DNA from: a virus
DNA: 60,339 bases
IMG/VR virus record: IMGVR_UViG_3300034352_000138
Strand: one strand, 5' to 3'
Shown: positions 24,001-44,498 of the stretch, one piece after another
How the letters are laid out: every line of letters starts with the position of its first letter
Position numbering within the stretch: the stretch's first letter is position 1
The notes under the pieces: generated by a model
What the model saw: only the letters and a program-made list of their open reading frames with translations
Databases searched by the model: none
Told to the model about the DNA's origin: nothing
Position numbers and translations under genes: made by a program

Positions 24001-24090
24001 AAAGTTACCGGGTATCACAACGACTCCGGGGCTACATACATCTACATGGCATTCGCAGAATTCCCATTCAAATACGCTAACGCGAGGTAA
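21022..24090 (+). CDS. Large receptor-binding-type protein: two LamG/concanavalin-like domains plus a SPRY domain (1022 aa)
   Basis: LamG-like signatures are WYHVLV...FDGYLAEVNFIDGSAL and WYHIAIVRNG...FAGYMDEIRISNIARY. The SPRY-like signature is GKYYSEYYV...GDVIGIALNADANQITFYHNG. Confidence 0.75.
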   Translation: MGVLSENSIIGASGVSGEFSIDSSLRFNDDDSAYLNWTPSSAGNRKTWTWSGWVKRGSTGAELGLLGETNTYDYIRFESGGSIRLRFYNGSTTVLSLITTAVYRDPSAWYHVLVKTDTTQATASNRCKIYVNGVQVTAFTTETYPSQNYDGLLNSAILHTVGSVGASRYFDGYLAEVNFIDGSALAPTDFGEFDATYGHWKAKEYTGSYTGNSFYLPFDNAGTKHTLTANGNTKHSTTQQKFGATSIKFDGTGDYLSIPDHDDWTFGTDNWTIEFWARFDDVTSFDQVLLRKGTSNPNNTFIIEWSSSGSGGLRLGWYESSTWTYIGGSSSGFSSNVWYHIAIVRNGTSFVIYKDGSSYASATNSGSLPDTSDVVTIGANGVGTVEFAGYMDEIRISNIARYTSGFTPSTSIFISDSYTRLLIQSDTTNGSTTFADSSGVVGGAGNDQSGQANHWTPNNLTASDQMLDSPTNNFATLNPLSKATSGQGTYSEGNLKLVTPSSGNGLAVSSFGVTSGKYYSEYYVGDSVQRGTVGVTGDVDATLTANTNLGSLSSSFDVGYMGNDGDKFIGNTESTYGSAFSAGDVIGIALNADANQITFYHNGTSKGAISLAANGTYHFAYGDISAGFGSTSVVNFGQDATFAGNKSPSTTYSDGTYGEFFYQPPSGFKALCTLNIPDPAVVPGEHFNALTYTGTGADNRSITGAGFQPDFTWLKSRSAATNHYLYDSIRGANYQLLSNDDGAESNTADRMQAFESDGFQLGTSTEVNNNNATYISWNWKAGTSVSGTTAGAGTGKAYSGSVNTSNGFSIVTYKGNGTAGHGIPHRLSKAPDIWIVKHRNASGGWMVGSSQYTDYTYWNALNDTFAPYNTASNNRWYSEPDASNVYIQTTIAVSELNTNDDDYLMYCWHSVDGFSKIGSYTGNGSTDGPFIYTGFQPKYVMVKKTSAAESWFIADDARESYNPFDYGLLADSSGAELISVKMIDLLSNGFKPRKVTGYHNDSGATYIYMAFAEFPFKYANAR

Positions 24091-28917: not shown

Positions 28918-29493
28918 ATGGGTGGCGATAGCCCGACAAGGTATACACCAAAGAATCACCCTGAAGAAAGGGAATTGGCGAAGATTGCCGAGGAACAATG
29001 GCAGGAATATAAGCTGCGTTATATCCCGATTGAGAATGAGTGGATGCAGCGAGTCGAGGGTCTGAATGATCCAGGGGCTCATGATTCAGCTAGAGGTATG
29101 GCTGCATCTGAATTTGCCCAAGCTAACCCGGATGCTGTCCAGCGTATGCAGGCAGGTATGGGGGCCGGGGATATGGTGCGTCGTAGCCAAGCCATGCCGG
29201 AATTTACTAAATCCGCGAATAACCTCGCCCAGATTAAGAACCGAGCTAGCCTCGGGGTAACGGACCGTTATGTCAGGGGTATGGAATCAGTTATTGGTAT
29301 CGGCCAAGGGGAACAAACTGAGGGTTTACAGGGCCTAACAGATCTAGCGGAACAAGCAGTACAGGGGCGAATCGATAATACTAAAAATCGATTTGAACGT
29401 AAACAAGGCAAGCTGGATTCCATGGGATCTCTGGCGGGCGGAGTTTCAGCATACGGTTTAGCAAAAGTTGGCCGTAAGAAAGGAGCTACATAA
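28918..29493 (+). CDS. Putative internal virion protein, MGGDSP paralogue 1 (191 aa)
   Basis: The N-terminus MGGDSP...EEQWQEYKLRYIPIENEW parallels the next gene. Confidence 0.6.
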   Translation: MGGDSPTRYTPKNHPEERELAKIAEEQWQEYKLRYIPIENEWMQRVEGLNDPGAHDSARGMAASEFAQANPDAVQRMQAGMGAGDMVRRSQAMPEFTKSANNLAQIKNRASLGVTDRYVRGMESVIGIGQGEQTEGLQGLTDLAEQAVQGRIDNTKNRFERKQGKLDSMGSLAGGVSAYGLAKVGRKKGAT

Positions 29494-29903
29494 TGGGTGG
29501 TGATTCTCCGAAAGTAAAAGAATCTTTTGATCGGGCTTCTGCCGAGCATCGATCTAAATTAACTCGAGAACAGTGGGAAGATTACAAGACTCGCTACCAG
29601 CCTTGGGAAGATAAGTTGATTGGTTTCGCTAACGACCCTACGGTTAAGCAACAGGGTGTTGATTACGCTAAGACGGCAGTAGATAACACTTATAACATAG
29701 GTCTAGGTCAGTACACGCGAAATCGAATGCGGTTGGGAGAGTCTCCTAAACTGGATGCACTTGAAACGCGACAGCTCAGATTGGGTAAAGCACAGTCCAT
29801 GGCCCAGTCGGTTAATGATGCCCGTAATTATGCGGATGATCGTAGAGAGAAGGTTCAAACATCGGGGCTGAGTTCAGCCGCTAGTACAGTGAGGAGTGGT
29901 TAA
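29493..29903 (+). CDS. Putative internal virion protein, MGGDSP paralogue 2 (136 aa)
   Basis: The N-terminus is MGGDSP...REQWEDYKTRYQPWEDKL. It overlaps paralogue 1 by TAATG. Confidence 0.6.
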   Translation: MGGDSPKVKESFDRASAEHRSKLTREQWEDYKTRYQPWEDKLIGFANDPTVKQQGVDYAKTAVDNTYNIGLGQYTRNRMRLGESPKLDALETRQLRLGKAQSMAQSVNDARNYADDRREKVQTSGLSSAASTVRSG

Positions 29904-29904
29904 G

Positions 29905-30996
29905 ATGGCAGGCGGATTACTAGGCGGCGGATTACGTAAGAAACAGTTATCTAATGAGCTTCGGCGGCAAGCCGGGACTCGAAGTGACCTTATTTTTGCC
30001 GAAGAAGCAAGGATAGCGGCTCAGGAACAAGCGGCTCAGGACCAGGCTGCTGGTACTGTAGTTGGTGCGGTAGCTCCAGTGGCTTATGACTGGGCCAAAG
30101 ATGCGGATATGTTTAACGATCCCCGCACAGCTCTATCGCCGGATGCTTATAAGGAGAGTTTATCCAGAGCTACTACTAAAGGGATGAAAGATGAGTTCGT
30201 AAAAGGTAACCGGGAAAAGTACCTGAACGAGCAAGCGGGTGATTGGTTCGATGCGAAGTACAACGAATTGATGGGCGAAGGTAAATCTGCGGCGGGCTCT
30301 CAGGATGTTGTCAAGGATATCGGCACCTCTAAGGATGCCTCTGGTGGGCTAGTAAATGCCGCTAATGACGGTCCTATGTATGACTCAAAAGGCCAAATTA
30401 ATAAGACCTGGGCAGATAGCAGTCTAACAGATAGCGGTAAGGCGACCGTACAGCCTACTACTGTTGACGTAGGTTCTTCTACGCAGGCGGTGAAGGGTTT
30501 CGATGGGACGACTCGGGTGATGTCTACCGATCCTGGGTTTACTGCAAAGGCAATGGGGTTAGATAAGTTTGCAAATGTGGGCGGCGAGAAAGCTGTTACG
30601 GAAGGTAGCAAGGCAGCTGTTGACGTAGGTAGTAAGGCAGCTGTTGACGTAGGTAGTAAGGCAGCTGTTGACGTAGGTAGTAAGGCAGCTGTTGACGCAG
30701 GTAGCAAGGCAGCTGTTGACGCAGGTAGCAAGGCAGCTGTTGACGCAGGTAGCAAGGCAGCTCTTACAGAGGCGGCTAAAACAACAGTGGCCCAAAGCGT
30801 AGGGTCAGGCTTAGCCAGTGCAGGTGCAGGTGTAGTAGGTGGCCTTGCTGGGGGAGCTATCGGTGAAGCTGTAGGTGGGAAAACAGGTGGGAAGATTGGG
30901 AATGTAGCAGGGTCAGTACTCGCAGGAGCCGCTGTAGGTGGGCCTGTTGGAGCAGGGGTAGCCCTCTTGATATCCGGCATCGGCGCGTTAATTTAG
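29905..30996 (+). CDS. Repeat-containing protein with C-terminal glycine-zipper membrane segment (363 aa)
   Basis: ATG at 29905 after a GAGGAG SD (the track starts at GTG 29896). It contains six GSKAAVD(V/A) octapeptide repeats plus a partial seventh. The C-terminus is GLAGGAIGEAVGGKTGGKIGNVAGSVLAGAAVGGPVGAGVALLISGIGALI. Confidence 0.7.
   Translation: MAGGLLGGGLRKKQLSNELRRQAGTRSDLIFAEEARIAAQEQAAQDQAAGTVVGAVAPVAYDWAKDADMFNDPRTALSPDAYKESLSRATTKGMKDEFVKGNREKYLNEQAGDWFDAKYNELMGEGKSAAGSQDVVKDIGTSKDASGGLVNAANDGPMYDSKGQINKTWADSSLTDSGKATVQPTTVDVGSSTQAVKGFDGTTRVMSTDPGFTAKAMGLDKFANVGGEKAVTEGSKAAVDVGSKAAVDVGSKAAVDVGSKAAVDAGSKAAVDAGSKAAVDAGSKAALTEAAKTTVAQSVGSGLASAGAGVVGGLAGGAIGEAVGGKTGGKIGNVAGSVLAGAAVGGPVGAGVALLISGIGALI
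30604..30765 (+). repeat. 24-nt tandem repeat, 6 full copies plus a partial one, inside the CDS
   Basis: GGTAG(C/T)AAGGCAGCTGTTGACG(T/C)A repeats head to tail, in frame. Confidence 0.95.
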
Positions 30997-31006
30997 GAGA
31001 GTTAGG

Positions 31007-33451
31007 ATGGCAGGTTTTAGTGAAGGGTTTTCTCGTGGCTTCGGCTTGGTCGATAAGGTTATGGCGCGTGAACAGGAACTGGAGCAGCAGCAGAAGTTAT
31101 TGGATGAGAACAAGCGCCAATATGATGAGACTATAAAGGAGAGAAAGGCGCTTCGGCGGGGTACTGAAAAATTCCAGACCGCGTCCCTAATGGAACAGAC
31201 AAGACGGTCGAAAGTGATGGAGGGGCTCAGCCAACGCACCCTCGAGGAGGTACAGATAAAGAAGGTACAGATAGAAGCAGCCAACCAGCGGCTTAATAAG
31301 GCAAATAGCGAGTGGCGGCATAACTTTGTGAATGAAAAATTTAACAGTGATAATCGGCATTGGGACGAAGCACAGAAAGAGAAGGTTAGGGTAGCGACCG
31401 CTAATATCAATATCCTGAAGAATAGACTTTCGGCTCGTAAAGAGATTGCGGCAAACGAATTGAAGTTAGGCCGGGATAAGCTAGAGCAGATGGGTGAATT
31501 GGCTAGGGAGCGTGAGGCCGGTATAACGAAGAGGTTTGGGTTATCTGAAAAGGGTCTGACGACTAGACAAGCGACCGCCATTAATTCCAAAGAATATATG
31601 CAAGGAGTGCACCTTGAATTTCAAAAGGAAGAAAATGAAGCCCGTAATGAGCTTACTGATAGAAGTCTTGATCTTCAGGAAAACTACCAGGATGAGACTC
31701 TTGATCTTCGGGGCGATGAGTTATCCCTAAAACGTACTATAAGTGTACTGCAAAGTCGTAGGGCTAGGGGTTTGAATGACGCCCAAATTGACCAAATCGA
31801 AACCTATACTGAGCTGGCCGTAAAGAAATTTGGGTGGAGTAAGGAGGTTGCAGAGAAAGCAGCTACCGCGCAGGTAGCCCAGCAATTGCTAGACGGCAGA
31901 GATATGGCCTTGCGGGAAGAGAAAGGTGAGGTAGACTCGTATGTAATGCTGGAACGGTTGGGTATAAGTCGGGCCCAATATGAGACAACGCGTAGGCAAG
32001 CCCAGCTGGAGGGTGATATTAGACTGGCGGTAGCTCGGGCCAATATAGGCCATACAGACGCATTAGCTAGGTACCTAGGGACACAGAACCAGGCCTTGAC
32101 TAATAGTACAGTTTTTACTGAGATCGACAATCGTAGGGCCGTGGATAATGTGGCGTTAGATGGCATCATAAACGTACGCCCGAATGGAGCATTTGATAGT
32201 TTAAACATCCGTAGCGGCTCAGGCGGTTTGGATGATCTAGCTACGCTGCAAAGAACCACGAATATAGATCTCCCGAGTATATTAAATGATCCTGCGGGCT
32301 ATAAGGCGGACCTTGCAATATTGAATGACCCAGGTCAAATTGGGCAAGCTGGATGGCTTAAAGCTTTTAATAGACAAAGGGGGTCGGAGTTACTAAAGAG
32401 TCAAGGACAAAGGGTGCAGGGCTCAACTATGGCGTTCGCTCCAGAATATGACGCTAATGGTGCGATGATAGGCCAAAAACAAATTGATGTGCAGGGGTTC
32501 TCAGTTATAGATGCTGAATTGGTTGGAATTATGCCCGCGAAGGGGCTATCTGCTCGCCAAACAGATGGGGGCGAAATAAGGGCAGAGGGCCCAAGTCAGG
32601 TTACGGATGTATTTGAAGAAGGTACTGGGGACCGAAGACCGGGTTGGAAGGATGTGTACCAGAAAAATGCAAATGAAAAAGCGCGGCAGTCGGGAGAAGA
32701 ATTACCCTTCCCCGGTATAGCGCCTAAATCGGGGTCTGAGCCTTTGGCCGGTATACCGATCATACGTACCACTGTAGTGGGGCCAGGAGGGGCTCATTAT
32801 TCTTATGAGGCTCCTGCCACTAAGACCCGCCAGGCTAATGCCAAAGGGGACCCAGTAAATATCGTTACTATAGGTGATATGGCCCAGAAGAACGGCGAAT
32901 TTGAGGAACTGCGGGACAAGGCCCTCAGAGATCCCAGTCTTATGGCAAAACTTGAGCTTACTAGTGCTGGGCAGGGAGTTATATCGAGGCATGCTATTCG
33001 TTCTAATCCTGCGGCCGATCTGCGGTTGAAGCGGTTGAATATTAAATCGGCGGAGATACAAATGAAGTCTGCATTAAGTGAGGCCATCCAAAAAACAGAC
33101 GCAACTAATAGTAAGGAAGGTATGCAGGCACTTAAAGGTTGGTTCGTATACTCAGATAAGAGAAACGATACTCCTATATTGCATATGGAGGATGCAGCAG
33201 AGTTTGTAACGTCGTTGGCAAATGTATCGGTAGGGCTACGTAAGATGGGTTTGCAGTCTAACTGGGATAGTATGAATACTGTGGAACGGGGGATCTATGT
33301 CCAGGCATTTCATGCCGCTAAGAATAGGATTAAACGTGACGGGAGCTCTTATAATGCGGGAGATTTACTCGATGAATGGGTGCTGGGTATAAAAAAGGCA
33401 TTTGAGGGGCAACAGTCGGGACTTTACGGCGCTACGAGCAAGGGTTATTAA
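31007..33451 (+). CDS. Putative internal/ejection protein, N-terminal coiled coil (814 aa)
   Basis: Strong SD, about 300 aa of charged heptad sequence, and a position directly before the giant ORF. Confidence 0.65.
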   Translation: MAGFSEGFSRGFGLVDKVMAREQELEQQQKLLDENKRQYDETIKERKALRRGTEKFQTASLMEQTRRSKVMEGLSQRTLEEVQIKKVQIEAANQRLNKANSEWRHNFVNEKFNSDNRHWDEAQKEKVRVATANINILKNRLSARKEIAANELKLGRDKLEQMGELAREREAGITKRFGLSEKGLTTRQATAINSKEYMQGVHLEFQKEENEARNELTDRSLDLQENYQDETLDLRGDELSLKRTISVLQSRRARGLNDAQIDQIETYTELAVKKFGWSKEVAEKAATAQVAQQLLDGRDMALREEKGEVDSYVMLERLGISRAQYETTRRQAQLEGDIRLAVARANIGHTDALARYLGTQNQALTNSTVFTEIDNRRAVDNVALDGIINVRPNGAFDSLNIRSGSGGLDDLATLQRTTNIDLPSILNDPAGYKADLAILNDPGQIGQAGWLKAFNRQRGSELLKSQGQRVQGSTMAFAPEYDANGAMIGQKQIDVQGFSVIDAELVGIMPAKGLSARQTDGGEIRAEGPSQVTDVFEEGTGDRRPGWKDVYQKNANEKARQSGEELPFPGIAPKSGSEPLAGIPIIRTTVVGPGGAHYSYEAPATKTRQANAKGDPVNIVTIGDMAQKNGEFEELRDKALRDPSLMAKLELTSAGQGVISRHAIRSNPAADLRLKRLNIKSAEIQMKSALSEAIQKTDATNSKEGMQALKGWFVYSDKRNDTPILHMEDAAEFVTSLANVSVGLRKMGLQSNWDSMNTVERGIYVQAFHAAKNRIKRDGSSYNAGDLLDEWVLGIKKAFEGQQSGLYGATSKGY

Positions 33452-33456
33452 CTAAT

Positions 33457-36400
33457 ATGGCTGGATACAATATTCGTGATGTAATCGCCCCCCTCATGAT
33501 GGATGAGGAGGGTCGCGATATTCTCCTAAAGAATGGATATAGGATCCATGATGGCGATACAGTTATTTCACCTAGTGGGGAGAAAATCCGACTCTCAGGT
33601 ATTGACGCGGATGAAGTAGCTAACCCCTATAAAGGTACTTCCGATCAAGGTGCGGGGCGGTTAGCCCAAAATGCACTAGCTTATGGGTTAGACCAGGGAG
33701 GGGTATCGGTAAATCGTACGGGGCAAGACCACCACGGTAGAACAACTGCGGGCTTAGAGAGCAATATAGGGGATATTGAAGAGTACCTTGTCGCTAACAT
33801 GTACGCTTCTCGTTGGCCGAAATATGATAAGGATGGGTCTTTAGTAAATGCTGAAAACCTTCAGGGGCTTATGTATGCAAGCAAGGAGAATAAACACCCC
33901 GTAAAAGAGTTCATAAATCGAAATTTCCCCGTCGTTCCGGGGCGTTTACCTACACTCCCAAAAGGGAGGCTTACGCATACTCGTGGGGTGACTAGTAGAG
34001 CTTGGGCCCGTGGCATTGATAGCACACAACAGGGTGCTTATGGTTTAGCACATCTTGTAGGGCGAGCAGCAGGCAGTGAGGGCATCCAAGAGTGGGCCGA
34101 AGAAGGTATTGAGGAACAAGAACGGCAACTTCGTAAGAACCCAGCACGTTACCGATCTACGGCAGACGTCCATGGCGTTGGGGATGCTCTGGGTTTTGCA
34201 TACGAGAAAACGATAGAGAATCTTCCGCTATTAGCGTCAGCAGGTGTCGGAGGACTTGGTGCCAAGGTTACAGGACATATAGCGGGTAGGCAAATTGCTC
34301 AGAAGGCAGCGCATAGTGCCATGCAACGCGCAGGCGCTATGGGGGCTCGGGGCGAGGTTCTAAGTTCTATAGCCGGGAAGGCTGGTGCAGAGGCTGTACG
34401 GCAGCAAGCTAATAAACTAGGGGTAGCGGCAGGTACAGCAGTCTTTGGTGTAGCCAATACTGGGGAAACTGAAATCGGGCAGATGGCATTGGCGGACCCC
34501 GCCTCCCCTGCTGAAGTTTTAGGTATTGGGGCATTTAAGACCTACCTGGATAAAACTGGTATCGAAGTCATTATAGGTAGGTACTTAGGGGCCAAGGCCG
34601 CCAAGGGCGTAGTCGCTAAAGCTAAGAAGATTGCTACCGGAACAGTGGTCGCGGCGGGCGTAGAAGGTATGACTGAAGCTAGCCAGACCTTCTTGGATTT
34701 GGCGCTTCGGGATAGGCAAGATCCTAATTTCAATGCATTTGGCCCCGAAGCCCGGTCCATAATGCGCGAAGCTGGCATAACCGGGGCCGCTGTAGGCGGT
34801 ATGCTCGGCGGTGTTAGCGGCACTATAGGGGCAGTTTCTGAGAAGATTTCTGAGAAGGCCGCTCAAGCTATAGAAGAGAAAGAGCAGAAGATTGGGGAGG
34901 CTGAAGAAGCCGCTCGCCCTATAAGTACACTTAGGGAAGCGGCTGAAACACTTAGTACTAGCCAATGGCAGCGAATTCGAAATATCGCCAGTTCACATAG
35001 TGGCGGTAACCCGACTTCTAAGGACCAGGCTAGAACTTCTCTACGAGAAGCGGCCCCGCAAGTGAAAGAGGTTTTGGGAGAGGCTTATGCGGGTAAGGTA
35101 TTTAAGCCCCAAGTAGATGAGGACGGGGATGCGGTCCTATTTGAGGGGGGTTTTGATGAGGGCAACCCAGATCAGTACGACGCCAAGATGGAGTATATCC
35201 AGAAATATGCTCAGAAGGTTCTTGATGACCGGGCCAAGGCACAAGAAGCTATTAGGAAGCAGAAGGAGTCCGATGAAGCCAGCCCAAAAGATATAGTATT
35301 CGAGGAAGAGGAGACTGAAGTTCCGTCAGACCCAGAAGGTTGGGAGTATGTCGGCGAACGTAACAAGGACGGCAAATACCACGGACAAGGCACTTTTACC
35401 TGGCCCGAGGGGGATAGATACGTCGGTGGATTCAGGAATGGCAACTATCACGGCCAAGGCACCTATACCCATGCCGATGGAAGGGTGCAAAAGGGTATAT
35501 GGAAGAACGGTGCGTTTGTTGGGGAGTCTACTGAAGAGGTAGGAGGCGACAGAACTGAGACCAAGCCTGCGGTTAATAAGAAACCTACTAAAGGAGTCAA
35601 AGATTCTCCTGGTCCAGGGGATGCAGAAGTAAGCACTGATGCAACACCCGTTACCCCATTTCAGGAGTTAAAAAGTAGGCTAGACGGCGGACGTAAAGGG
35701 CCCGAGGATCACACGGCGACACAAAGTGCTATTACCACTAAGACCGAGGAGGGGGAGCCTGCTAAGGGTGATGAGACTAACGTCCAAACTCCACAAGCTT
35801 CTGATTCTAATACTGATGAAGTTTGGGGAATCGGCTCTGCAACTCCGATTATCCCGTCTCAGGTTAATAAAGGTGGGGCTAAGCTAGCGCAGGACGTCAA
35901 GGAGAAGGGTGCGAATAGGGGTTGGAGTGTCACTAGCCCTGAATTTATCCACTCCCCACTCAAGCAGATACTCAGGGTTGTAAAAAGTAGGCTAGACGGA
36001 GAAACGCCTGCACAGGAGCGGGAAGCTGACACTATTAGATTGAAGGATAATCTAAAGGACGTAGATGGGGAAATTGGCAAGCTTAAAAAAGCCGTTGAGA
36101 ATACCTATAAAGAGGGCTCAAAGGCTCAAAGTCGTAAGGATACACTTAGTAAGGTTATTAGGACGCAGTGGGATATGTCCTTAGAGGAGCGCCTCACCTC
36201 CTTAGAAGGGACGCGCGGGAAGTTGCTGCAGGAGCAAGCAGCCTTACAGGGCCCAGCCCCAACTAATGACGTTAGTCTTATTGCTTTAACCGAGGATGAG
36301 AAGTTCCTGGATGTAACTGATTGGGCGGGTGAAAAAGACGCGAACGCTCTCAAGAAGAGGCTGGGGAAAGACGCGCCCAAGATTACTCATGTTGTGGCGG

Positions 36401-39400
36401 TTAATACAGCAGATCTTGGTGACGGTTCGCAAACGGCTCTTAGTGACTCAGTATCCAAAGCAACAGAACGCCCCGTAACTACTCAGATCCGAACATTTGC
36501 TAAAGGCGGTAAGTGGTTCATCCACACGAATACAGCTAAGGACAGGGATGTAGGACTTTCAGCTGGGGAGATTCGAACAAGAATCCGCGCATCCTACGAT
36601 TCCGCTAAAAACTCTAGGAACGCGACTATTGAGCTCCAGCCTATGGAGGATGGGAAGCCTGCGGTTGACGACGATGGGAATAAGTTACCACCTCGTAAAT
36701 TCGACGCGCATTTACTTACTTACCTAGGTATGCATGCGGCTACGCAGTCGTCATTTAAAAGTACAGACCGTAAACGGGGCGATACACTCAGTTACTTCTT
36801 GGACGGGCTTGCGACTTTAGAATTGAACCTCGCCCCGGTTAGTAGGAAGGGTAAGGCCTACACTCATTCTGTAGTAGATAAGGATGGGAATGTCTCAAAA
36901 ATCGGAGATGAAAAATTCCGTATAGATGGCGATCAAGTCATACAGGTTGGTAAAGAGCCGATAACTGTTAAGTCAGATACCCGAGGCCCTACCAGGCATG
37001 TCGATGGCGCTGTCGATGTGGGGCAGGAAAGTAATGAGTTCTTAATAACTCCCGAGAAAGTTGAAGCTCGGCAGGCAGAACTAGAACGCGAAAGCACTGC
37101 CTCCGATGCTGATATCGATGCGCGGTTGAAATCCGGGGAGATCAATGAGGAGCAAGCAAAACAGGAGATCCAGGAGCAGAGTGATAAGAACTTCGGCGCT
37201 GAGCAACTAGCGGAAGAATACGAACTTCGTACGCTCCCTATACTTCGGACTCGATTGGATGTACTTCGAGCATTTCAGGCAGGCCTAGGTGAGGTCGCCA
37301 AGAAGTCGAAGAAAATCTCAGATTTGGTAGATTCGATGGGGGCCGCGGTTAAGAGGATTAAAGGCGGCGCTAATATCAAACGGGGGGCTTATGCAGCAAT
37401 GGCTGAGCCGTCAGCCCGTGAACTCGAACTTGAGGAAAGATTATTTGGCCCTGAGTTCGATGGGGTTCGGGCAGAAGCTAAGAAAATTAGAGGGGAACTC
37501 ACAGAACTCAGAGGGAAGATTCGTCAGCGTAAGGAGGAGATTAAAGCGCATAGGGAGGAGATTAAAGCACATAGGGAGGAGATTGCAGAGCTTGATAGGG
37601 ATCCAAAGCCCTACAATGCCTATGAGATTGGCAAGCTTGAGAAAGAGATTGGCACCCTTGAAGGAAAGATCGGTAAGCTTGAGAAAGAGATTACTAAATT
37701 TGAAGGTACGATCAAGAAACGAGAGTCTCCGCGTGGTAAGGCGGCTACACGTAATGAACTTAATGAACTTGAGGAGGATATCCTCGCGCTAAGCAAAAAG
37801 CGTCAAAAGCTTGAAGATGCAAGGGCTAAAGAATTTCTCCGGGCAAAAGCTATATCCGCTAGTCAGGAAGCGGACTACCTAGCTAAGGAGAATGCTGAGA
37901 AGGACATCAACCCCGTTCCTTTCCCACTTAATAGAGGCCTTGAGGGTACTGAGGGTGGGGCTAAAGGGCGTGAAACTAAACGGCTTCTGAATGAGTCGCT
38001 TGATGACTTGGTTACTAGGTTCCAAGAGCTAAAGAAGTCTTTACCTAAAACCGCTGAGAAAAGCGGGAAAGTTAAGGCTGTTCGCAGAGCGGCTTTCGAC
38101 GAACTTAATGAGGTTCAGCGGCAGATTCGTAAGATAGAAGCAGCCATCACCAGCTACGGGCGAGACACTGTAAATTATGGGTCGGATGTCCAGATGACCA
38201 TAACTGAGGACGGTGATATCGTACCGCTCAGTGGGACGAACGTCGCTAAAGATTATGAGCCGGATATTACTACCAAGAATCCTGATGCGGGGCGCCAGGG
38301 TGATAGGGATCTAACCGATACGACTACCCCCCAGAGGAGTTCTAAACCTGGGAAAACCTCTGATGTACGAGCTAAACTCAATATAAAACTTGATAAGAAC
38401 ATGGCGCCTGTCGTCAAGATGCTTCGGTGGGCCCGAGAACATCTTGGATTGGAAGGTACTTCACTATCAGTCATCGATGAGAACGGTCTGGAGAAGATGA
38501 TCGCCAGCCTCGAAAAGGGGTTGAAGAACTGGGATGCCAGAATTGCAAAGGAAGTTAAGAAGCGGGGGCTCAATAAGAAGGACAAAAAGAAGGACAAAAC
38601 GCAATTCCTATTCCAGCAAAAAGAGAATCACGATATTTACGTATTGAAGCTGAAGCGGCTAAAAGGCGCACGAAAGGTTTTGGATCGCGGTGGCATCATT
38701 TATAACGACGACTTTAATGATAAGAAAGGGGTTGATCGCTCCTGGGCGCGTATACCGATCATGATCCTTAGTACTAAGACTAAGGCTGTTAAGGATGCAG
38801 AGGGGAACATAGTACAGCCGAGCCGGGTACTTTCTGGGGAGGAACGTCTTGATACGATGTTGCATGAATTTGGTCACTTCGTACAACGTGTGTCTATGGA
38901 CCAGATCATCGCCCAGGCTCAGGATCAAGGTCCGAACTCTGATGCGGCTAAGGTCGTTGAGTCTATATTTGGTAGGGTGGATTGGGCTCAAAAATATGAT
39001 CGTGAGTCTCCAGAGCGGAGGACTGGGGAGACTAAGAAAGCCTTTACAGCTCGGGTTAAGGAACATAACGAGCGAGTGAAACTTAGCGAAACGCGCGTTG
39101 CGGACCAGGCTGAAGCACGGGAATGGTTTGCGAACATGCTGGTTTATTGGGCTAGTACTAAAGAGGCTCCTAAAACTGCGGTAGAGCATTTCTTTAAGGA
39201 AGCGGCGAAGAAGCTGAGAGCTTGGTTCGATAGAGTAACCAAGGAGATGAAAGCCTATAAGGGCTCAAACGAATACCTTAAAGTTCGGGAAGATGCTCGT
39301 GGTAAAGCCCATAAGAGGTTGCTACATTGGCAGGGTGTAAAGAAGAAAGCGGAGAAGACACTTACAACAAAGGGCAATATGAAGATCCTCTCTGGGGAGG

Positions 39401-42258
39401 AGAAGATTGCGCTGGATAAAGAAGTCGCCAAAGCATTAGGTCACATCCAACGAATTGAAGAGGATTTACATGCACTTGAAACTGAGTCCCAAGAAGCTCA
39501 GTCCCTAGAAGGGGGCCGAGAAAAGAACTTCATGCAGTTCATGGACGCTATGGCGGGTCGTGGGCAACCTAATTCTAGGGCTATTAGACGGGGTAAGAAG
39601 GTATTCACGGAGCGACAAAGAATTCAGACCCGGCACAATAGACTGTTAGAGGGCTTAGGGCAGACCCTCCAGGAGCAGATCAGTTGGCTCGACTCTAAAG
39701 TAGCTGTCTTGGAGGGCCCTGCTAAGGTTAAGTTCGCTAAGAGAGTGGCAAAGGTTAAGCAGAGATTGCATAAAGGGCATGCCGCAACGAGAAAACAATA
39801 TGCAAAGGCGAGGGATACCGCTCTGGCTTCTTTTGATAAGGAGTGGGGGGAGATCATGACCCAGGCCAAGATGGCTGGGAAACCTGTACCTAGATCTTTG
39901 GATAAGACTAGAGAATTGGTAGAAAGCTTAGCGTTCTCTATGCATAGCCGTCCTAGATCTGATGGGGTTCTGGGTGATAGGTATTTCGGTGAAGAGATTA
40001 TGGGTCGTGCTAAGGCTAAGGTTGAAGCTGGCGTAACTCGTACGAGGAGTAGTCGCGGAGGAGCGTGGACAGAATCCCAGGTTTCGAATCTCTGGGGCAA
40101 AGTGGCTCAGCGCGGAAGTCTTATGGTACAGGCTGTTGATGGCAGACTTAAAGGAATGAAGTCTTCTGCTGATACACCCTCAGTAACTGCCACATTCATG
40201 GCGAATCTGTTTCGTTGGGATATGGGTACAGTAGGGATAGGTTCAAATACTATACCCGATACTGTTACTCGGATTAAACGACGTATCCAACCCATGATGC
40301 AGAAGTCCCTGGACACTATGCCAGTCGTACCCCATTTGATTGAACGTCTTAAAAATCCAGAGGCTTCCAAGGAAGATCTAGCTTTACTTAAAGAGATTAC
40401 TGAGGGATTAATTAAGCACCAGTCTGTGAAGCTCAAGGACTTAGATGTCTCTGATAGGGCCAGAACAGAGATTGGTAAGGTTCGTCAGTATTTTAAGGAG
40501 GTATATAGCACGAGTGTGAGTGGTACTGGTGGGGCTACGGTGGGAGAGATGTTGAATATTTGGGAAGTAGAGAATTACTTTCCGATGATTTTAGATATTG
40601 AAAAGTTTAGTAACCCGGAGAGAAAGGAGTACATCCTTCGGGCTATAGGAAAAGACAAAGCCTTTAATTTTATAGACGCAGACGGTCAGTGGTTAGAACA
40701 CGGTGAGGCGAATGCCGAGAAGGTCTACAATAATATTATTACGGCTGAAGGGCAGACTGATCCTTCTATTATAATGAAGCCGGACGTTCTTGGTCCTCAG
40801 TTTATGGGTAAATTACATCGTGAATTTTCCCCGAAGTTACAATCTGATTTGGCAGAGTTTTACCATGATAATGTGTATCAGATTATGGTGGGCTATACAG
40901 ACGCTCTTGCTAAGCGGTTAGCTTGGCAGATACATGTAGGGGGATATGAGCAGGATAAGAGTGGTCGTTTTGTTCTTAGAGAGGCACGGAGTGAGCATGA
41001 GACCGTTGCAGATCGATTGATGTACTCCCCGGTGGCTAGGCTCAATTGGATGTTGAATAATGCGGTGGAGCTTGGGGATCTTAAAGCTGAAGATGCTATA
41101 TGGATTCGTGAGGTGGCTATACCTGCTTATCAGGGAAATCTCGGGGCAGATATGTCGCCGGGTATTCGGAAGGCAGTGGCTTGGACTAAAACCTACCTTA
41201 GTGTTTCGATTCTAGCGGGGGCAACTTTTACATCGATACCTGATCTTGCCGGGATTTATATTAGGCTTGGGGCTTATGCAGATGCTAATAGGTCATATGA
41301 GGGAATTAAGGAGTTATTTAAACTAGCTACGGATAGTGGTTATAGAAAGGAGGCAGCTCGATATGCAAATGTATTGCTTACTGTTCATGACGATTTCGTA
41401 GATCATGCTTTAGCTAATACTACTGCTATTGGTTATACCCCAGCACCGATCCTTAAAGTTAATGATGCTTTCTTTAAAGTTATCATGCTGAAGCAATGGA
41501 CCGATTTCACAAGAATTCTTGCGACTAATATTGCGAAGGATGATATTAAGTGGTTGTATGGGGAGAATACTGCAGAGGCTAATGAGAAACTGGGAAGGTT
41601 GGGTTTAGAACGGAGAGATGTAGAGGCTTGGATTGATGCGGGGGCGGATAGTAATCATTTGACCCAGCAAGAATATGACTACGCAAATCCTCGAATAGCT
41701 ATAGCTTTAAACAGATGGGTGGATCAAGCGGTTATTCGACCATCAGCGGCGTTAAGGCCAGGGCGTTGGGGGTCGGATCATAGGATGGCATTCTCTTGGT
41801 ATCTAAATGACTTCGTTTGGGGGTTTTACGAGACTGTTATGAAACAAGCTTACCAGGGGTTTAAGGATCAGAAGGGATTTGCTAAGGTGTTGCCCCCGTT
41901 GATGTTGGCGGCTACGGTTTTACCTCTAGCGGCTTTAGGGTATGAGCTTCGGAAGCTAATCTTTGGTAAGTTACCAGCGGCGGCTTTAGATACTAGGGAT
42001 GTAACTCGGGAACTTCACGGGCTGGATTATTTAGCAGAGGTGTTTCGTAGATCGGGTTTGATGGGTCCGCTTCAGATGTATGATGATTATGCGACTGATC
42101 GACAACGGGGTAAGTCAGCGATATTGAATTTAGGTGGAGTGTTGCCAGAGAAGTTCTTGGATTTGATAGATAATCCAGAAAGGACTATGTGGAAGACTAA
42201 CCCCATTACAGGGACTTCCCCTACTCTTAGAGCCTACTTCAAGGATCAGCTAGAATGA
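33457..42258 (+). CDS. Giant multidomain virion-type protein (2933 aa): SNase-like nuclease, Gly/Ala-rich hydrophobic region, MORN repeats, coiled coils, HExxH metallopeptidase motif, C-terminal hydrophobic segments
   Basis: SNase pattern IHDGDTV...IRLSGIDADE...DHHGRTTA (nt 33538-33816). MORN repeats YVGERNKDGKYHGQGTFTW and YVGGFRNGNYHGQGTYTH (nt about 35341-35525). Heptad repeats EEIKAHR x2 plus EEIAELD, and GKLEKEI-type. HEFGH at nt 38863-38877. TM-like LSVSILAGATFTSIPDLAGIYI and VLPPLMLAATVLPLAALGY. Confidence 0.8.
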   Translation: MAGYNIRDVIAPLMMDEEGRDILLKNGYRIHDGDTVISPSGEKIRLSGIDADEVANPYKGTSDQGAGRLAQNALAYGLDQGGVSVNRTGQDHHGRTTAGLESNIGDIEEYLVANMYASRWPKYDKDGSLVNAENLQGLMYASKENKHPVKEFINRNFPVVPGRLPTLPKGRLTHTRGVTSRAWARGIDSTQQGAYGLAHLVGRAAGSEGIQEWAEEGIEEQERQLRKNPARYRSTADVHGVGDALGFAYEKTIENLPLLASAGVGGLGAKVTGHIAGRQIAQKAAHSAMQRAGAMGARGEVLSSIAGKAGAEAVRQQANKLGVAAGTAVFGVANTGETEIGQMALADPASPAEVLGIGAFKTYLDKTGIEVIIGRYLGAKAAKGVVAKAKKIATGTVVAAGVEGMTEASQTFLDLALRDRQDPNFNAFGPEARSIMREAGITGAAVGGMLGGVSGTIGAVSEKISEKAAQAIEEKEQKIGEAEEAARPISTLREAAETLSTSQWQRIRNIASSHSGGNPTSKDQARTSLREAAPQVKEVLGEAYAGKVFKPQVDEDGDAVLFEGGFDEGNPDQYDAKMEYIQKYAQKVLDDRAKAQEAIRKQKESDEASPKDIVFEEEETEVPSDPEGWEYVGERNKDGKYHGQGTFTWPEGDRYVGGFRNGNYHGQGTYTHADGRVQKGIWKNGAFVGESTEEVGGDRTETKPAVNKKPTKGVKDSPGPGDAEVSTDATPVTPFQELKSRLDGGRKGPEDHTATQSAITTKTEEGEPAKGDETNVQTPQASDSNTDEVWGIGSATPIIPSQVNKGGAKLAQDVKEKGANRGWSVTSPEFIHSPLKQILRVVKSRLDGETPAQEREADTIRLKDNLKDVDGEIGKLKKAVENTYKEGSKAQSRKDTLSKVIRTQWDMSLEERLTSLEGTRGKLLQEQAALQGPAPTNDVSLIALTEDEKFLDVTDWAGEKDANALKKRLGKDAPKITHVVAVNTADLGDGSQTALSDSVSKATERPVTTQIRTFAKGGKWFIHTNTAKDRDVGLSAGEIRTRIRASYDSAKNSRNATIELQPMEDGKPAVDDDGNKLPPRKFDAHLLTYLGMHAATQSSFKSTDRKRGDTLSYFLDGLATLELNLAPVSRKGKAYTHSVVDKDGNVSKIGDEKFRIDGDQVIQVGKEPITVKSDTRGPTRHVDGAVDVGQESNEFLITPEKVEARQAELERESTASDADIDARLKSGEINEEQAKQEIQEQSDKNFGAEQLAEEYELRTLPILRTRLDVLRAFQAGLGEVAKKSKKISDLVDSMGAAVKRIKGGANIKRGAYAAMAEPSARELELEERLFGPEFDGVRAEAKKIRGELTELRGKIRQRKEEIKAHREEIKAHREEIAELDRDPKPYNAYEIGKLEKEIGTLEGKIGKLEKEITKFEGTIKKRESPRGKAATRNELNELEEDILALSKKRQKLEDARAKEFLRAKAISASQEADYLAKENAEKDINPVPFPLNRGLEGTEGGAKGRETKRLLNESLDDLVTRFQELKKSLPKTAEKSGKVKAVRRAAFDELNEVQRQIRKIEAAITSYGRDTVNYGSDVQMTITEDGDIVPLSGTNVAKDYEPDITTKNPDAGRQGDRDLTDTTTPQRSSKPGKTSDVRAKLNIKLDKNMAPVVKMLRWAREHLGLEGTSLSVIDENGLEKMIASLEKGLKNWDARIAKEVKKRGLNKKDKKKDKTQFLFQQKENHDIYVLKLKRLKGARKVLDRGGIIYNDDFNDKKGVDRSWARIPIMILSTKTKAVKDAEGNIVQPSRVLSGEERLDTMLHEFGHFVQRVSMDQIIAQAQDQGPNSDAAKVVESIFGRVDWAQKYDRESPERRTGETKKAFTARVKEHNERVKLSETRVADQAEAREWFANMLVYWASTKEAPKTAVEHFFKEAAKKLRAWFDRVTKEMKAYKGSNEYLKVREDARGKAHKRLLHWQGVKKKAEKTLTTKGNMKILSGEEKIALDKEVAKALGHIQRIEEDLHALETESQEAQSLEGGREKNFMQFMDAMAGRGQPNSRAIRRGKKVFTERQRIQTRHNRLLEGLGQTLQEQISWLDSKVAVLEGPAKVKFAKRVAKVKQRLHKGHAATRKQYAKARDTALASFDKEWGEIMTQAKMAGKPVPRSLDKTRELVESLAFSMHSRPRSDGVLGDRYFGEEIMGRAKAKVEAGVTRTRSSRGGAWTESQVSNLWGKVAQRGSLMVQAVDGRLKGMKSSADTPSVTATFMANLFRWDMGTVGIGSNTIPDTVTRIKRRIQPMMQKSLDTMPVVPHLIERLKNPEASKEDLALLKEITEGLIKHQSVKLKDLDVSDRARTEIGKVRQYFKEVYSTSVSGTGGATVGEMLNIWEVENYFPMILDIEKFSNPERKEYILRAIGKDKAFNFIDADGQWLEHGEANAEKVYNNIITAEGQTDPSIIMKPDVLGPQFMGKLHREFSPKLQSDLAEFYHDNVYQIMVGYTDALAKRLAWQIHVGGYEQDKSGRFVLREARSEHETVADRLMYSPVARLNWMLNNAVELGDLKAEDAIWIREVAIPAYQGNLGADMSPGIRKAVAWTKTYLSVSILAGATFTSIPDLAGIYIRLGAYADANRSYEGIKELFKLATDSGYRKEAARYANVLLTVHDDFVDHALANTTAIGYTPAPILKVNDAFFKVIMLKQWTDFTRILATNIAKDDIKWLYGENTAEANEKLGRLGLERRDVEAWIDAGADSNHLTQQEYDYANPRIAIALNRWVDQAVIRPSAALRPGRWGSDHRMAFSWYLNDFVWGFYETVMKQAYQGFKDQKGFAKVLPPLMLAATVLPLAALGYELRKLIFGKLPAAALDTRDVTRELHGLDYLAEVFRRSGLMGPLQMYDDYATDRQRGKSAILNLGGVLPEKFLDLIDNPERTMWKTNPITGTSPTLRAYFKDQLE

Positions 42259-43487: not shown

Positions 43488-44498
43488 TTACTCTATATTG
43501 GATGCGTAGTTAGCTAGGTGTTGGGGTGCTAAATGGGCATAGCGTTCTACCATGTCTAAACTACTCCATGCGCCTAGTTGTTTAAGGCCTTCGATGGGCG
43601 TTCCGTTCTGGATATGCCAACTGGCCCAAGTATGGCGTAAGTCGTGCCATGTAAATTCTGTGATCTCTGCCCGTTTTAGTGCGTTTTTAAATGCTCTTGT
43701 GTAAGGGTTTTTAATCGGTTCGCCGTTGTAATGGAAAATGTGTGTAGGGTGTTTGCCTTTCTGCGCGTATAAGACTTCCCTCCCCGTCTTATTGAGTGGT
43801 ACGCGAATAGTTTTCCCTTTTCCCTTTTTACTTTTGGTTTGATCTGCGTGAATCCAGGCTAGGTTGTTTTCTAGGTCTATTTGGGACCATGTAAGGTTAG
43901 TGACGTTAGATTTTCGTAATCCGGTCGCCAAAGAAAATCTAACCATAACTTCTAAATGTGGGGGTAATTGTAGAAGTAGTTTTGCTGCGTCAGCTTTAGA
44001 TAAGAAACGTACTCGCTTCTTATCTTCGGGCAGGAGGTTAAATTGGGGTAGTTTGCTGATATAGCCCCAAGGTTTGAGGCATTTATGTAGAACTGTACTG
44101 ATTGCCGCAATGTATATATTAACAGTGCGGTACTTTACGCCTTCTGCGAGTTTGATATCGATTAGGTCATCGATTAACTCTTCGGTGATCGCAGAGAGTG
44201 GTAGGTTACCTATGTGGGGGTCAAGCCATTTGAATTGGGTGTTGCGATCTGAGAGTGTCTTTGGTTTGATGTGTTTTTGGGCCCATTTAACCCAGCGCAC
44301 TACGGCTTCGTACCAGAATATCTCTCGTTGGATACCTAAGTGGGTTTTATCCCAGGCTTCAGCTTGTCTTTTATCAGCGTATTCTTGAGCTTTTAGCTTG
44401 TCGGTAGTCCGAGTAGATCTTCGTACTCTTTTCTGGTCTGGTAATTTGAAGTCGTAGAACCAATACGGGGAATTTGGGTCTTTGTAGAGTTTGGCCAT
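43488..44498 (-). CDS. int: Tyrosine integrase
   Basis: C-terminal catalytic region TGLRKSN...FTWHDLRHTWASWHIQNG...LGAWSSLDMVERYAHL (R, HxxR, Y). The N-terminal SAM-like domain and the adjacent xis and attP support the call. Confidence 0.95.
   Translation of the reverse strand: MAKLYKDPNSPYWFYDFKLPDQKRVRRSTRTTDKLKAQEYADKRQAEAWDKTHLGIQREIFWYEAVVRWVKWAQKHIKPKTLSDRNTQFKWLDPHIGNLPLSAITEELIDDLIDIKLAEGVKYRTVNIYIAAISTVLHKCLKPWGYISKLPQFNLLPEDKKRVRFLSKADAAKLLLQLPPHLEVMVRFSLATGLRKSNVTNLTWSQIDLENNLAWIHADQTKSKKGKGKTIRVPLNKTGREVLYAQKGKHPTHIFHYNGEPIKNPYTRAFKNALKRAEITEFTWHDLRHTWASWHIQNGTPIEGLKQLGAWSSLDMVERYAHLAPQHLANYASNIE

Follow-up and report, generated by a model that had tools for sequence, protein, structure and literature searches.

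The window, by which we mean the whole stretch of viral DNA that was analysed (IMG/VR virus record IMGVR_UViG_3300034352_000138; 60,339 nucleotides), carries a 123-bp terminal direct repeat at its ends, which indicates that it is a complete genome of ~60 kb. Its plus-strand structural operon is closed by an intact ORF of 2933 aa that takes up 14.6% of the window, in keeping with the 15 percent originally estimated, and that starts 5 nt past an 814-aa ORF; the genes beyond it are on the minus strand. That this ORF would end the structural operon behind an 814-aa coiled-coil protein, and that the capsid protein would be N4 gp56-like, had both been proposed in the original prediction, and the gene order agrees with the former while the latter is borne out by distant homology of the capsid and portal proteins to N4 gp56 and gp59 (E 2e-8 and 6e-5, respectively). 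The operon runs through two cysteine-free proteins of 366 and 814 aa to the giant ORF, and no genes for a tail tube, sheath, tape-measure chaperone or distal tail were found among the phage's neighbouring genes; gene order and this lack of long-tail genes mark the giant ORF as the largest and last gene of a putative ejection-gene cluster. An integrase gene is also present in the genome. Three relatives (L003, L011 and L012) have the same gene arrangement, with integrase and replication genes after the giant gene, and megablast found no close relatives among isolated phages. The features of the locus are as follows.

29896..30996, + strand: 366-aa protein, cysteine-free, with a Gly-rich hydrophobic C-terminal tail (position and composition only)
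31007..33451, + strand: 814-aa protein, cysteine-free, partly coiled-coil, directly upstream of the giant ORF (position only)
33457..42258, + strand: giant ORF, complete, 2933 aa, cysteine-free (ORF call, translation, composition)
33517..33831, + strand: SNase domain, aa ~21-125 (Pfam, PDB profile, AF2, Foldseek)
33589..33615, + strand: RLSGIDADE, aa 45-53, with R45 (=R35), D50 (=D40) and E53 (=E43) (alignment to SNase)
33736..33741, + strand: G94-R95, R95 being SNase R87 (alignment to SNase)
33952..34896, + strand: Gly/Ala-rich helical N-module, aa 166-480, a conserved family module (alignment, AF2, Foldseek, hydropathy)
35338..35526, + strand: three MORN repeats, aa ~628-690 (Pfam, PDB)
35527..38526, + strand: variable, largely coiled-coil middle, aa ~691-1690 (phmmer, alignment with relative P0001)
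37533..37584, + strand: in-frame 21-nt tandem repeat, 2.5 copies, REEIKAH heptads (repeat search)
37624..37713, + strand: in-frame 21/42-nt tandem repeat, EIGKLEK heptads (repeat search)
38644..39261, + strand: zincin-like metallopeptidase domain, aa ~1730-1935 (family alignment, PDB profile, Pfam in relatives)
38863..38877, + strand: HEFGH zinc-binding/catalytic motif (motif, family alignment)
39121..39123, + strand: E1889, predicted third zinc ligand (gluzincin Glu; invariant column)
40144..42255, + strand: family-defining all-alpha C-terminal domain, aa 2230-2933 (profile search, AF2, Foldseek)
41173..41256, + strand: moderately hydrophobic segment, aa 2573-2600 (Kyte-Doolittle 1.07-1.25)
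41887..41973, + strand: strongly hydrophobic conserved segment, aa 2811-2839, LPLAALGYELR (hydropathy, family motif)

The two proteins encoded immediately upstream have no detectable relation to gp15 or gp14. From its position the 814-aa protein is a putative gp15-slot partner of the giant protein; it gave no Pfam or PHROG match and no tblastn match among isolated phages, and its sole relative is 25% identical over 190 aa. Position and composition together suggest the 366-aa protein as a putative small pore-forming partner.

The SNase domain (PF00565) was missed in a Pfam scan of the whole protein and passes the threshold when the scan is limited to aa 1-186 (23.2 bits, cutoff 21, E 1e-4, aa 43-126). 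A profile of three sequences, the N-terminus and those of two relatives, matched 293 SNase chains in the PDB with a best E of 1.5e-6, and in its alignment D34/R45/D50/E53/R95 coincide with SNase D21/R35/D40/E43/R87, so that the catalytic pattern originally read from RLSGIDADE and the GR pair, here at aa 45-53 and 94-95, does fall on the catalytic residues of the enzyme. The equivalents of T41 and Y85 are Ala and His, and T41 is the only member of the catalytic and Ca2+-binding set D21, D40, T41, R35, E43 and R87 to be substituted. Across the SNase domains of the family, which are ~25% identical overall, the equivalents of D21, R35 and E43 are present in 35/35 and that of R87 in 34/36, and such invariance at so low an overall identity points to selection on catalysis; the D50 column is more variable, with Asp in 23 sequences and Asn in 8. 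In the AF2 model aa 21-120 form strands and helices (pLDDT 76-89), and Foldseek matched the domain to small phage thermonuclease homologs (TMt 0.47-0.57, E 4e-3 to 3e-2). Judged by its residues, then, the domain is apparently an active DNA/RNA nuclease.

Behind it lies the Gly/Ala-rich hydrophobic region that had been predicted, at aa 166-480, with a hydrophobicity that is weak and confined to glycine-zipper-like segments at aa 253-276, 369-402 and 435-457. This module is 45% identical to that of the syntenic relative P0001 and is present in 91 of 113 large relatives; AF2 models it as helices (pLDDT about 80-89), and Foldseek matches it to the N-terminal parts of polyvalent proteins bearing other cargo. 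At the other end of the protein, the transmembrane-like helices that had been expected hold up at aa 2811-2829, the sole strong hydrophobic stretch (Kyte-Doolittle 1.74), and less well at aa 2573-2600, which is weaker; in the hydropathy of the whole protein one segment alone reaches the hydrophobicity of a classical transmembrane helix.

The two to three MORN repeats anticipated are three, scoring 28 bits in Pfam against a cutoff of 22.5 and matching MORN1 and radial-spoke proteins in the PDB over aa 615-691 (E 9e-10). With phmmer, aa 481-1690 searched against 155 relatives match the giant protein itself alone, and the middle region could not be aligned even with P0001. The in-frame 21-nt repeats lie within this middle, within a few bases of where they had first been placed.

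The HEFGH motif is exactly where it had been predicted to be, and it is joined by the invariant downstream E1889: H1803, E1804, H1807 and E1889 are the sole invariant columns among 19 diverse relatives (alignment A4). A family profile matched Pro-Pro endopeptidase/Zmp1 in the PDB along the entire catalytic domain (E 1e-4) and, weakly, lethal factor and ATLF. Pfam recognised Peptidase_M78 in 11/19 relatives (best E 3.8e-8); the giant protein alone scores 14.7 bits for it, under the cutoff of 22. On the strength of these conserved residues we consider that this is a true zincin peptidase domain. A specific homology to the C1 subdomain of N4 was considered and rejected, the alignment being limited to the HExxH helix.

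The C-terminal domain was modeled by AF2 with a pLDDT of 75.7 and a pTM of 0.77. Searched with Foldseek against BFVD, the model matches a structural protein of phage KPP25 (E 1e-17, TMq 0.67) and internal virion or core proteins of VP2, RSB3, PAO1_Ab05, LKA1 and others (E 1e-9 to 4e-5); for the gp16-type matches the TM is about 0.44-0.57, with predicted models on both sides of the comparison. All named BFVD matches of the domain are internal virion, core, structural or polyvalent proteins, and its neighbors there include proteins annotated as [quoted passage not shown]. Against solved structures Foldseek gave nothing significant (best E 0.25; best phage match the core proteins of 9vvp, E 0.35), and matches of the domain profile to haemagglutinin HA2 among PDB sequences were discarded as being at chance level. 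The domain thus resembles the T7/phiKMV-type internal virion protein D (gp16) in predicted fold only, and no sequence-level homology to T7 gp16 or the VP2 internal virion protein was found by hhalign or hmmsearch/phmmer.

The family is defined by the C-terminal ~700 aa, which at least 1463 clusters share (E<=1e-3, exhaustive search). A word-indexed protein search was far less sensitive, returning 4-5 matches against those 1463, and single-protein scans of IMG/VR with the N- and C-termini returned none. The family is very large and experimentally unstudied, and the giant protein is one member of it. The domain is nearly always C-terminal, in phage proteins of 1500-3742 aa that have a common frame of Gly/Ala-rich helical N-module, variable cargo, zincin and all-alpha C-domain; HExxH occurs in 110/112 large relatives and 103/112 are cysteine-free, as are T7 gp15 and gp16 and N4 gp50 (vRNAP). 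The slot at the very N-terminus takes exchangeable enzymes, being empty or holding a lysozyme, an SLT or an SNase: roughly one family member in three has SNase there, P0048 has SLT and P0146 has Phage_lysozyme. Among the Foldseek neighbors the frame is common to proteins with helicase, RelA/SpoT and acetyltransferase cargo. The original prediction had described the domain combination as unfamiliar among characterised ejection proteins; the architecture is not unique, its frame being standard in these clusters. Its assignment of the ORF to polyvalent-type giant proteins is favored by the polyvalent-annotated neighbors of both the N- and C-modules, by the KPP25 structural protein and by relative P0004, which carries LPD23/LPD39.

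What, then, does this protein do? We think it probable that, in a temperate phage of podovirus type whose head is distantly N4-like, the giant ORF specifies the largest ejection (internal virion) protein, third of its set and by function a polyvalent protein of the gp16/N4-gp50 class. All the tests run agree with the core of what was originally proposed, namely a virion-delivered polyvalent giant with SNase, MORN repeats, zincin and membrane segments and no RNA polymerase. From the gp16-type predicted fold of the C-terminal third we infer that the protein would be first of all a part of the DNA-delivery machine. The head would package few copies of it, and at adsorption it would thread the tail behind its smaller upstream partners and enter the host before the DNA does, probably largely unfolded, as its gene position and the almost complete lack of cysteine in the family's proteins suggest. 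Since relatives place an SLT or a phage lysozyme in the same slot, as T7 gp16 does, the N-terminal enzyme would come out on the periplasmic side. SNase enzymes need Ca2+ at levels that are not free in the cytoplasm, and its availability outside the cytoplasm fits this placement. On the basis of two relatives and T7, the slot of the nuclease thus probably points to the periplasm over the cytoplasm. The Gly/Ala-rich module and the C-terminal hydrophobic segments would engage the inner membrane and the all-alpha C-domain would form the inner-membrane/cytoplasmic part of the DNA conduit, roles suggested by the resemblance of the predicted fold to gp16-type proteins. The central zincin, with its four catalytic/ligand residues invariant, may cut the polyprotein or a host target. 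The SNase, its catalytic residues conserved, would be a working nuclease, the best guess for its substrate being nucleic acid at the envelope, such as the DNA of competing elements; the host chromosome is disfavored as a target because the phage carries an integrase.

Does the nuclease act in the cytoplasm instead? The polyvalent-protein concept (PMC5512222) predicts that it would, with the zincin freeing the SNase in the cytoplasm to degrade host, plasmid or rival-phage nucleic acids or to counter defence, and with the DNA-delivery scaffold secondary. The conservation of catalytic residues in both SNase and zincin speaks for such an effector, as does the cargo of frame-sharing proteins (helicase, RelA/SpoT, acetyltransferase), which needs cytoplasmic substrates. 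We nevertheless regard it as rather unlikely, because the Ca2+ requirement of SNases exceeds the free cytoplasmic level, the SNase precedes the first membrane-interacting module in the slot where relatives hold peptidoglycan hydrolases, and wholesale destruction of host DNA at entry would be self-defeating for a phage with an integrase. Or is the domain no longer an enzyme at all? In other proteins, such as Tudor-SN, the SNase fold serves as a binding module, and an OB-fold "wing" on the ejection channel, with a DNA-binding or structural role, would be compatible with the equivalent of D40 being Asn, Ala, Ser or Gln in 12/35 family members, with the Ala at T41 in this protein and with the weak Pfam score of the SNase in the whole protein. 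The retention of D21, R35, E43 and R87 despite the low overall identity is what would be expected of selection on catalysis, and loss of enzymatic function seems quite unlikely.

Two further readings were considered. A giant, cysteine-free protein with HExxH whose gene closes a distantly N4-like head module might be a divergent virion RNA polymerase, N4-like or crAss-like, and the strings TVHDDF and DEDGD do occur in it. The original prediction had already judged the TVHDDF match weak and such a polymerase unsupported. In the family neither the H nor the DD of this string (aa 2642-2647) is conserved, DEDGD lies within a region unique to the giant protein, and the middle region, where a polymerase would be expected, is absent even from P0001. 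N4 vRNAP structures are deposited in the PDB, and neither the PDB nor the Pfam searches of the giant protein returned an RNA polymerase family. Against N4 gp50 itself the best BLASTP E was 2.6 and phmmer gave no match; with hhalign likewise giving no polymerase similarity to gp50, we consider a virion RNA polymerase ruled out and give the idea almost no credence. Tape measure proteins of long-tailed phages are long, helical, cysteine-poor proteins with Gly/Ala-rich hydrophobic stretches and at times peptidase or lysozyme domains, traits that the giant protein shares. Gene order and neighbors rule this out too, and it is very improbable, since the ORF is last in its operon, beyond the fiber genes, no tube, sheath, chaperone or distal-tail genes adjoin it, and 2933 aa as a tape measure would imply a tail of ~440 nm. 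In addition, the Foldseek neighbors are podovirus internal virion proteins, and KPP25 is placed in the Podoviridae by the title of the paper describing it.

To our knowledge, what is known in detail of the ejection proteins of short-tailed phages comes from T7, P22 and N4 only. If the predicted fold is a guide, our analysis connects the ejection-protein class with a very large and so far unstudied family of giant proteins from metagenomic phages, whose frame is fixed as Gly/Ala-rich N-module, zincin and gp16-like C-domain. The near-absolute lack of cysteine, common to T7 gp15/gp16 and N4 gp50, is a simple signature that could help to spot the ejected proteins of uncultured phages. Should the nuclease prove active and enter the cell together with the DNA, it would represent a first-strike enzyme of a new kind. 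A bolder form of this idea, which we put forward as a speculation that is unlikely to hold, has the virion deliver the SNase head as a Ca2+-dependent nuclease that works at the periplasmic face of the ejection channel and, within seconds of the start of infection, destroys foreign DNA on its way in, be it that of a superinfecting phage or DNA arriving by transformation or conjugation. If so, about one third of a family of >1000 phage lineages would wield an exclusion weapon of an undescribed kind that acts before gene expression, and, as a corollary, the N4 virion RNA polymerase would be one specialized offshoot of a general "frame plus cargo" ejection protein.

Among known systems, staphylococcal nuclease/thermonuclease (PF00565) is matched in fold, in Ca2+ ligands and in catalytic D21, R35, D40, E43 and R87; unlike it, the domain here lacks a signal peptide, is fused to the N-terminus of a 2933-aa protein and has T41 replaced by Ala and Y85 by His. 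Relatives of the giant protein in isolated phages are KPP25 ORF088 (~2009 aa, Pseudomonas phage; "virion structural protein" by record annotation only) and a 2050-aa protein of Aeromonas phage phiA008, which have in common with it the C-terminal domain (tblastn E 1e-20 to 5e-25) as well as an HExxH in their central part; phiA008 has the Gly/Ala-rich module too. Both are shorter and ~26% identical over the last ~480 aa, and in KPP25, unlike here, more structural genes follow the giant gene. Polyvalent proteins (Iyer, Burroughs, Anand, de Souza, Aravind 2017; PMC5512222) are alike in uniting unrelated activities in one polypeptide, with a zincin hub and a late/structural gene context. The giant protein is of this kind in combining SNase, zincin and MORN in a single structural-operon ORF. 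It differs in that a Pfam scan found none of the named LPD domains in it, and SNase and MORN have 0 occurrences in the main text of that paper. Other polyvalent proteins carry cytoplasm-acting cargo, which counts against a periplasmic placement of the SNase.

N4 gp50, the third ejection protein of the Schitoviridae, is also giant, cysteine-free and terminal after a distantly homologous capsid/portal module, and its map of membrane-spanning NTD, cargo, HExxH C1 and large alpha C2 (PMC13434306) has the same order of parts: membrane-associated N-domain, cargo, HExxH zincin subdomain and large alpha-helical C-domain. Its cargo is an RNA polymerase module, of which the giant protein has none, and the phage here is smaller and, with its integrase, temperate; hhalign gave 34% probability over the 18 residues of the HExxH helix and below 1% elsewhere, and the Gly/Ala-rich module showed no similarity to the N-terminal domain of N4, so that homology between the two was rejected. 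For T7 gp16 the hhalign probability was below 1%, and the family HMM matches no T7 or VP2 ORF. The giant protein is 2.2 times longer than gp16, has an SNase in place of the transglycosylase and adds a zincin, MORN repeats and a unique coiled-coil stretch of ~1000 aa. In T7 gp16 an N-terminal transglycosylase in the periplasm is followed by TMH I, a cytoplasmic C hub and TMH II (PMC8954989). Like gp16 and the core proteins of Autographiviridae (phiKMV, RSB3, LKA1, LIMElight), the giant protein is the largest and last of its ejection set, with an N-terminal enzyme, then a membrane-interacting region, and a large all-alpha C-domain with a hydrophobic segment ~100 aa from the C-terminus; both it and gp16 lack cysteine, and, as in gp16, the N-terminus of one family member is an SLT. 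It is this same order of parts in the domain maps of T7 gp16 and N4 gp50 that we count in favor of the giant protein being an ejection protein.

The giant open reading frame at 33457-42258 on the plus strand encodes 2933 amino acids without interruption, occupies 14.6% of the genome and is the final structural gene, starting 5 nt beyond an 814-aa ORF, which agrees with the original prediction that it takes about 15% of the genome and closes the structural operon after an 814-aa protein. A 123-bp terminal direct repeat at positions 1-123 and 60217-60339 of the window indicates that the phage genome, about 60.2 kb long, is complete; isolated phages include no close DNA-level match to it. The minus strand encodes a family-A DNA polymerase, a DUF5906 primase-helicase, an SNF2 helicase and an integrase. 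The features referred to here are as follows.

~8.9 kb to 42.3 kb, plus strand: structural module, with large terminase, portal, capsid and fibre genes and a 1022-aa LamG/SPRY fibre protein
10862-12940, plus strand: portal, distant homologue of N4 gp59 (E 6e-5)
14196-15200, plus strand: capsid protein, distant homologue of N4 gp56 (23% identity, E 2e-8)
21022-24090, plus strand: 1022-aa fibre-like protein with Laminin_G_3, SPRY and DUF7483 domains, the last very strong (E 2e-99)
43488-44498, minus strand: integrase, ~1.2 kb downstream of the giant gene
52458-53525, minus strand: 355-aa ORF, syntenic with the DNA-ligase gene called in the contig (L003) of the closest full-length relative, P0001
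55245-57629, minus strand: MoxR/VWA-type pair in the replication arm, a DUF2201 putative metallopeptidase/VWA-like protein and an adjoining AAA ATPase

The window yielded no gene for a tube, sheath, tape measure or chaperone. Because a remote homology of capsid and portal to N4 gp56 and gp59 is detectable, the earlier impression of an N4-like head was right, and for the same reason this temperate lineage of ~60 kb looks, from its sequence, like a distant cousin of the Schitoviridae that lacks the virion RNA polymerase (vRNAP). The gene context is kept in three relatives (L003, L011 and L012), where the giant gene ends the structural genes and an integrase, the replication genes known from the window, or both come next; in L011 and L012 the giant gene adjoins the integrase.

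The giant protein was predicted to begin with a staphylococcal nuclease (SNase) domain that keeps the catalytic pattern, and the evidence agrees. Residues 1-186 scanned alone score 23.2 bits (E 1e-4) against the Pfam SNase model, for which the cutoff is 21, and the syntenic P0001 (2792 aa) scores 28.3 bits; a three-sequence SNase profile matched 293 PDB SNase chains (best E 1.5e-6); D34, R45, D50, E53 and R95 align in that profile with SNase D21, R35, D40, E43 and R87; and the AF2 model of aa 1-490 shows, with good confidence (pLDDT 76-89), a domain rich in beta-strands at aa 21-120, which Foldseek matches to small phage thermonuclease homologues. Among 113 large proteins (the query and 112 large relatives retrieved for family counts), SNase is present in at least 38, 34 from iterative search and four added by Pfam, two of which (P0102 and P0113) exceed the Pfam cutoff. 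Since the Gly/Ala module starts at about residue 45-60 in members without SNase and at about 150-190 in those bearing it, the nuclease is an N-terminal add-on. These domains are only ~25% identical, yet the residues corresponding to D21, R35 and E43 never vary, R87 has its counterpart in 34 of 36, and at the D40 position 23 have Asp and eight have Asn, which argues for selection for catalysis.

Other enzymes occupy the same N-terminal slot: an SLT transglycosylase in the relative P0048 (aa 7-108, 88 bits) and a phage lysozyme in P0146 (aa 34-157, 45 bits). Because peptidoglycan, the substrate of both, is extracytoplasmic and SNase-type enzymes require Ca2+, the simplest reading of this position is that the slot would be exposed on the periplasmic side during ejection. 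The transglycosylase of T7 gp16 comprises residues 1-156, lies before the first membrane region and works in the periplasm (PMC8954989).

How much of the protein is common to its relatives? An exhaustive HMMER search with aa 2150-2933 returned 1463 clusters at E<=1e-3, of which 1022 also pass E<=1e-10; nearly always the matching part is the very C-terminal end of a protein 1500-3742 aa long. HExxH is present in 110 of the 112 large relatives, typically 800-1300 residues from the C-terminus, and the Gly/Ala-rich helical module (aa 166-480) in 91 of the 113 proteins, whereas the middle of the query (aa 481-1690, MORN repeats and heptad arrays included) has a counterpart in no other family member. 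We therefore read in these sequences a family frame of N-module, variable cargo or spacer, zincin and C-domain. One member of at least 1502 aa (HMM E 1e-165), whose open frame runs up to the start of the locus taken, lies within 412335-419786 of a 528-kb contig of Allochromatium humboldtianum DSM 21881 (NZ_JABZEO010000001.1), presumably in a prophage.

Several finer predictions could be placed on this frame. Of the two to three MORN repeats expected, three are seen at aa ~628-690, where Pfam and matches to MORN proteins in the PDB (E 9e-10) both support them, and the in-frame 21-nt repeats reported at 37534-37590 and 37627-37715 were located at 37533-37584 and 37624-37713. The HEFGH zincin motif lies exactly as predicted at 38863-38877; when 19 diverse relatives are aligned, H1803, E1804, H1807 and E1889 are the sole invariant columns, a pattern that reads as a gluzincin signature. 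The zincin profile matched Pro-Pro endopeptidase/Zmp1 in the PDB over the whole catalytic domain (E 1e-4) and lethal-factor-like proteins more weakly, and 11 of the 19 relatives match Peptidase_M78 in Pfam. Where a hydrophobic Gly/Ala-rich region and C-terminal TM-like helices had been predicted, one segment is strongly hydrophobic (aa 2811-2829), one moderately (aa 2573-2600), and Gly-zipper-like stretches within aa 253-457 are weakly so.

The AF2 model of aa 2230-2933 is all-alpha and of fair confidence (pLDDT 75.7, pTM 0.77). Among predicted viral structures it matches the KPP25 structural protein (E 1e-17, TMq 0.67), several entries named 'Large polyvalent protein associated domain-containing protein', and internal virion or core proteins of Autographiviridae type (E 1e-9 to 4e-5, TMq 0.44-0.57), namely VP2 internal virion protein, RSB3 internal core protein, PAO1_Ab05, LKA1 and LIMElight, with 'internal virion protein D' of pEp_SNUABM_12, BB8 and JG068; every named match is a phage internal, core, structural or polyvalent protein. 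Because no solved structure matched significantly (the best phage match being 'core proteins of bacteriophage E1004', E 0.35) and no sequence-level link to T7 gp16-type proteins was demonstrable, we use 'gp16-like' for a likely function and a predicted fold, not for family membership. For the N-terminal model, the matches are the opening portions of polyvalent proteins annotated with other cargo (helicase, RelA/SpoT, acetyltransferase, goose-type lysozyme).

The query contains no cysteine in 2933 aa, against 0.64% in the window's other proteins (chance ~7e-9), and of the 112 large relatives 103 have none, eight have one and one has three. Five consecutive cysteine-free genes (191, 136, 366, 814 and 2933 aa; 28918-42258) end the structural operon, and T7 gp15 and gp16, N4 gp50 and the C-terminal regions of six N4-like vRNAPs are also free of cysteine. 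Its absence may serve generally as a mark, readable from sequence, of proteins that phages eject through their tails.

Two upstream neighbours have features of their own. The 366-aa protein (29896-30996), two genes upstream, carries a 24-nt in-frame repeat (7.2 copies, 30591-30762, GSKAAVDV/A) and a glycine-zipper-like, Gly/Ala-rich hydrophobic C-terminal tail of ~70 aa; a role in ejection as a pore-forming partner is conceivable. The 814-aa protein opens with a short conserved peptide of 21 residues, MAGFSEGFSRGFGLVDKVMAR (31007-31069), that shares 90% identity with the start of the corresponding protein in the P0001 contig (2718-2780), and beyond it the two are barely alignable (25% over 190 aa).

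Beyond the domain identities, catalytic-residue conservation, family frame, gene position, cysteine depletion and predicted-fold neighbours, all shown by the analysis, we propose that the giant protein would be packaged and ejected, crossing the tail unfolded; such passage would explain selection against cysteine, since the chain would have to traverse the oxidising periplasm and to refold. The N-terminal nuclease would act outside the cytoplasm, the Gly/Ala module and C-terminal hydrophobic segments would engage the inner membrane, and the C-domain would form the inner part of a DNA conduit. The zincin may process its own chain or a host protein, as has been proposed for polyvalent proteins (PMC5512222). 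What, then, would the nuclease cut? A phage that carries an integrase seems unlikely to destroy the chromosome of its host as it enters, and our preferred guess, held with low confidence, is foreign DNA in transit through the envelope.

A virion RNA polymerase, which the original prediction had considered unsupported but in need of formal exclusion, is ruled out as far as sequence methods go. Neither Pfam nor PDB searches of the giant protein returned an RNA polymerase family, and in TVHDDF neither the H nor the DD is conserved across the family. Against N4 gp50 the best BLASTP E was 2.6, phmmer gave no match, hhalign probability was below 1% for the C-terminal 1250 aa and the N-module, and alignment of N4 C1 with the zincin was limited to the HExxH helix. 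A DEDGD string (35116-35130, aa 554-558) resembles DxDGD, the motif with which two-barrel RNA polymerases bind metal, but the part of the query that contains it is unique to this protein, and no similarity supports the resemblance.

Three points do not appear in the searched literature: SNase as a cargo domain (no mention in PMC5512222), the exchangeable N-terminal slot and the cysteine-free signature (cysteine is mentioned in neither PMC8954989 nor PMC13434306). The class itself is known, with polyvalent proteins described in 2017 (PMC5512222) and ejection proteins known from T7 and N4, and within it the giant protein typifies a large family. Like the giant gene, that of N4 gp50 ends its structural module, and its product likewise combines absence of cysteine (in 3500 aa) with an HExxH motif, 1273 residues from the end. 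In its published structure gp50 runs from an N-domain that spans the membrane, through the polymerase and the HExxH-bearing subdomain C1, to C2, which is large and built of alpha-helices (PMC13434306), and this order of parts is that of the giant protein.
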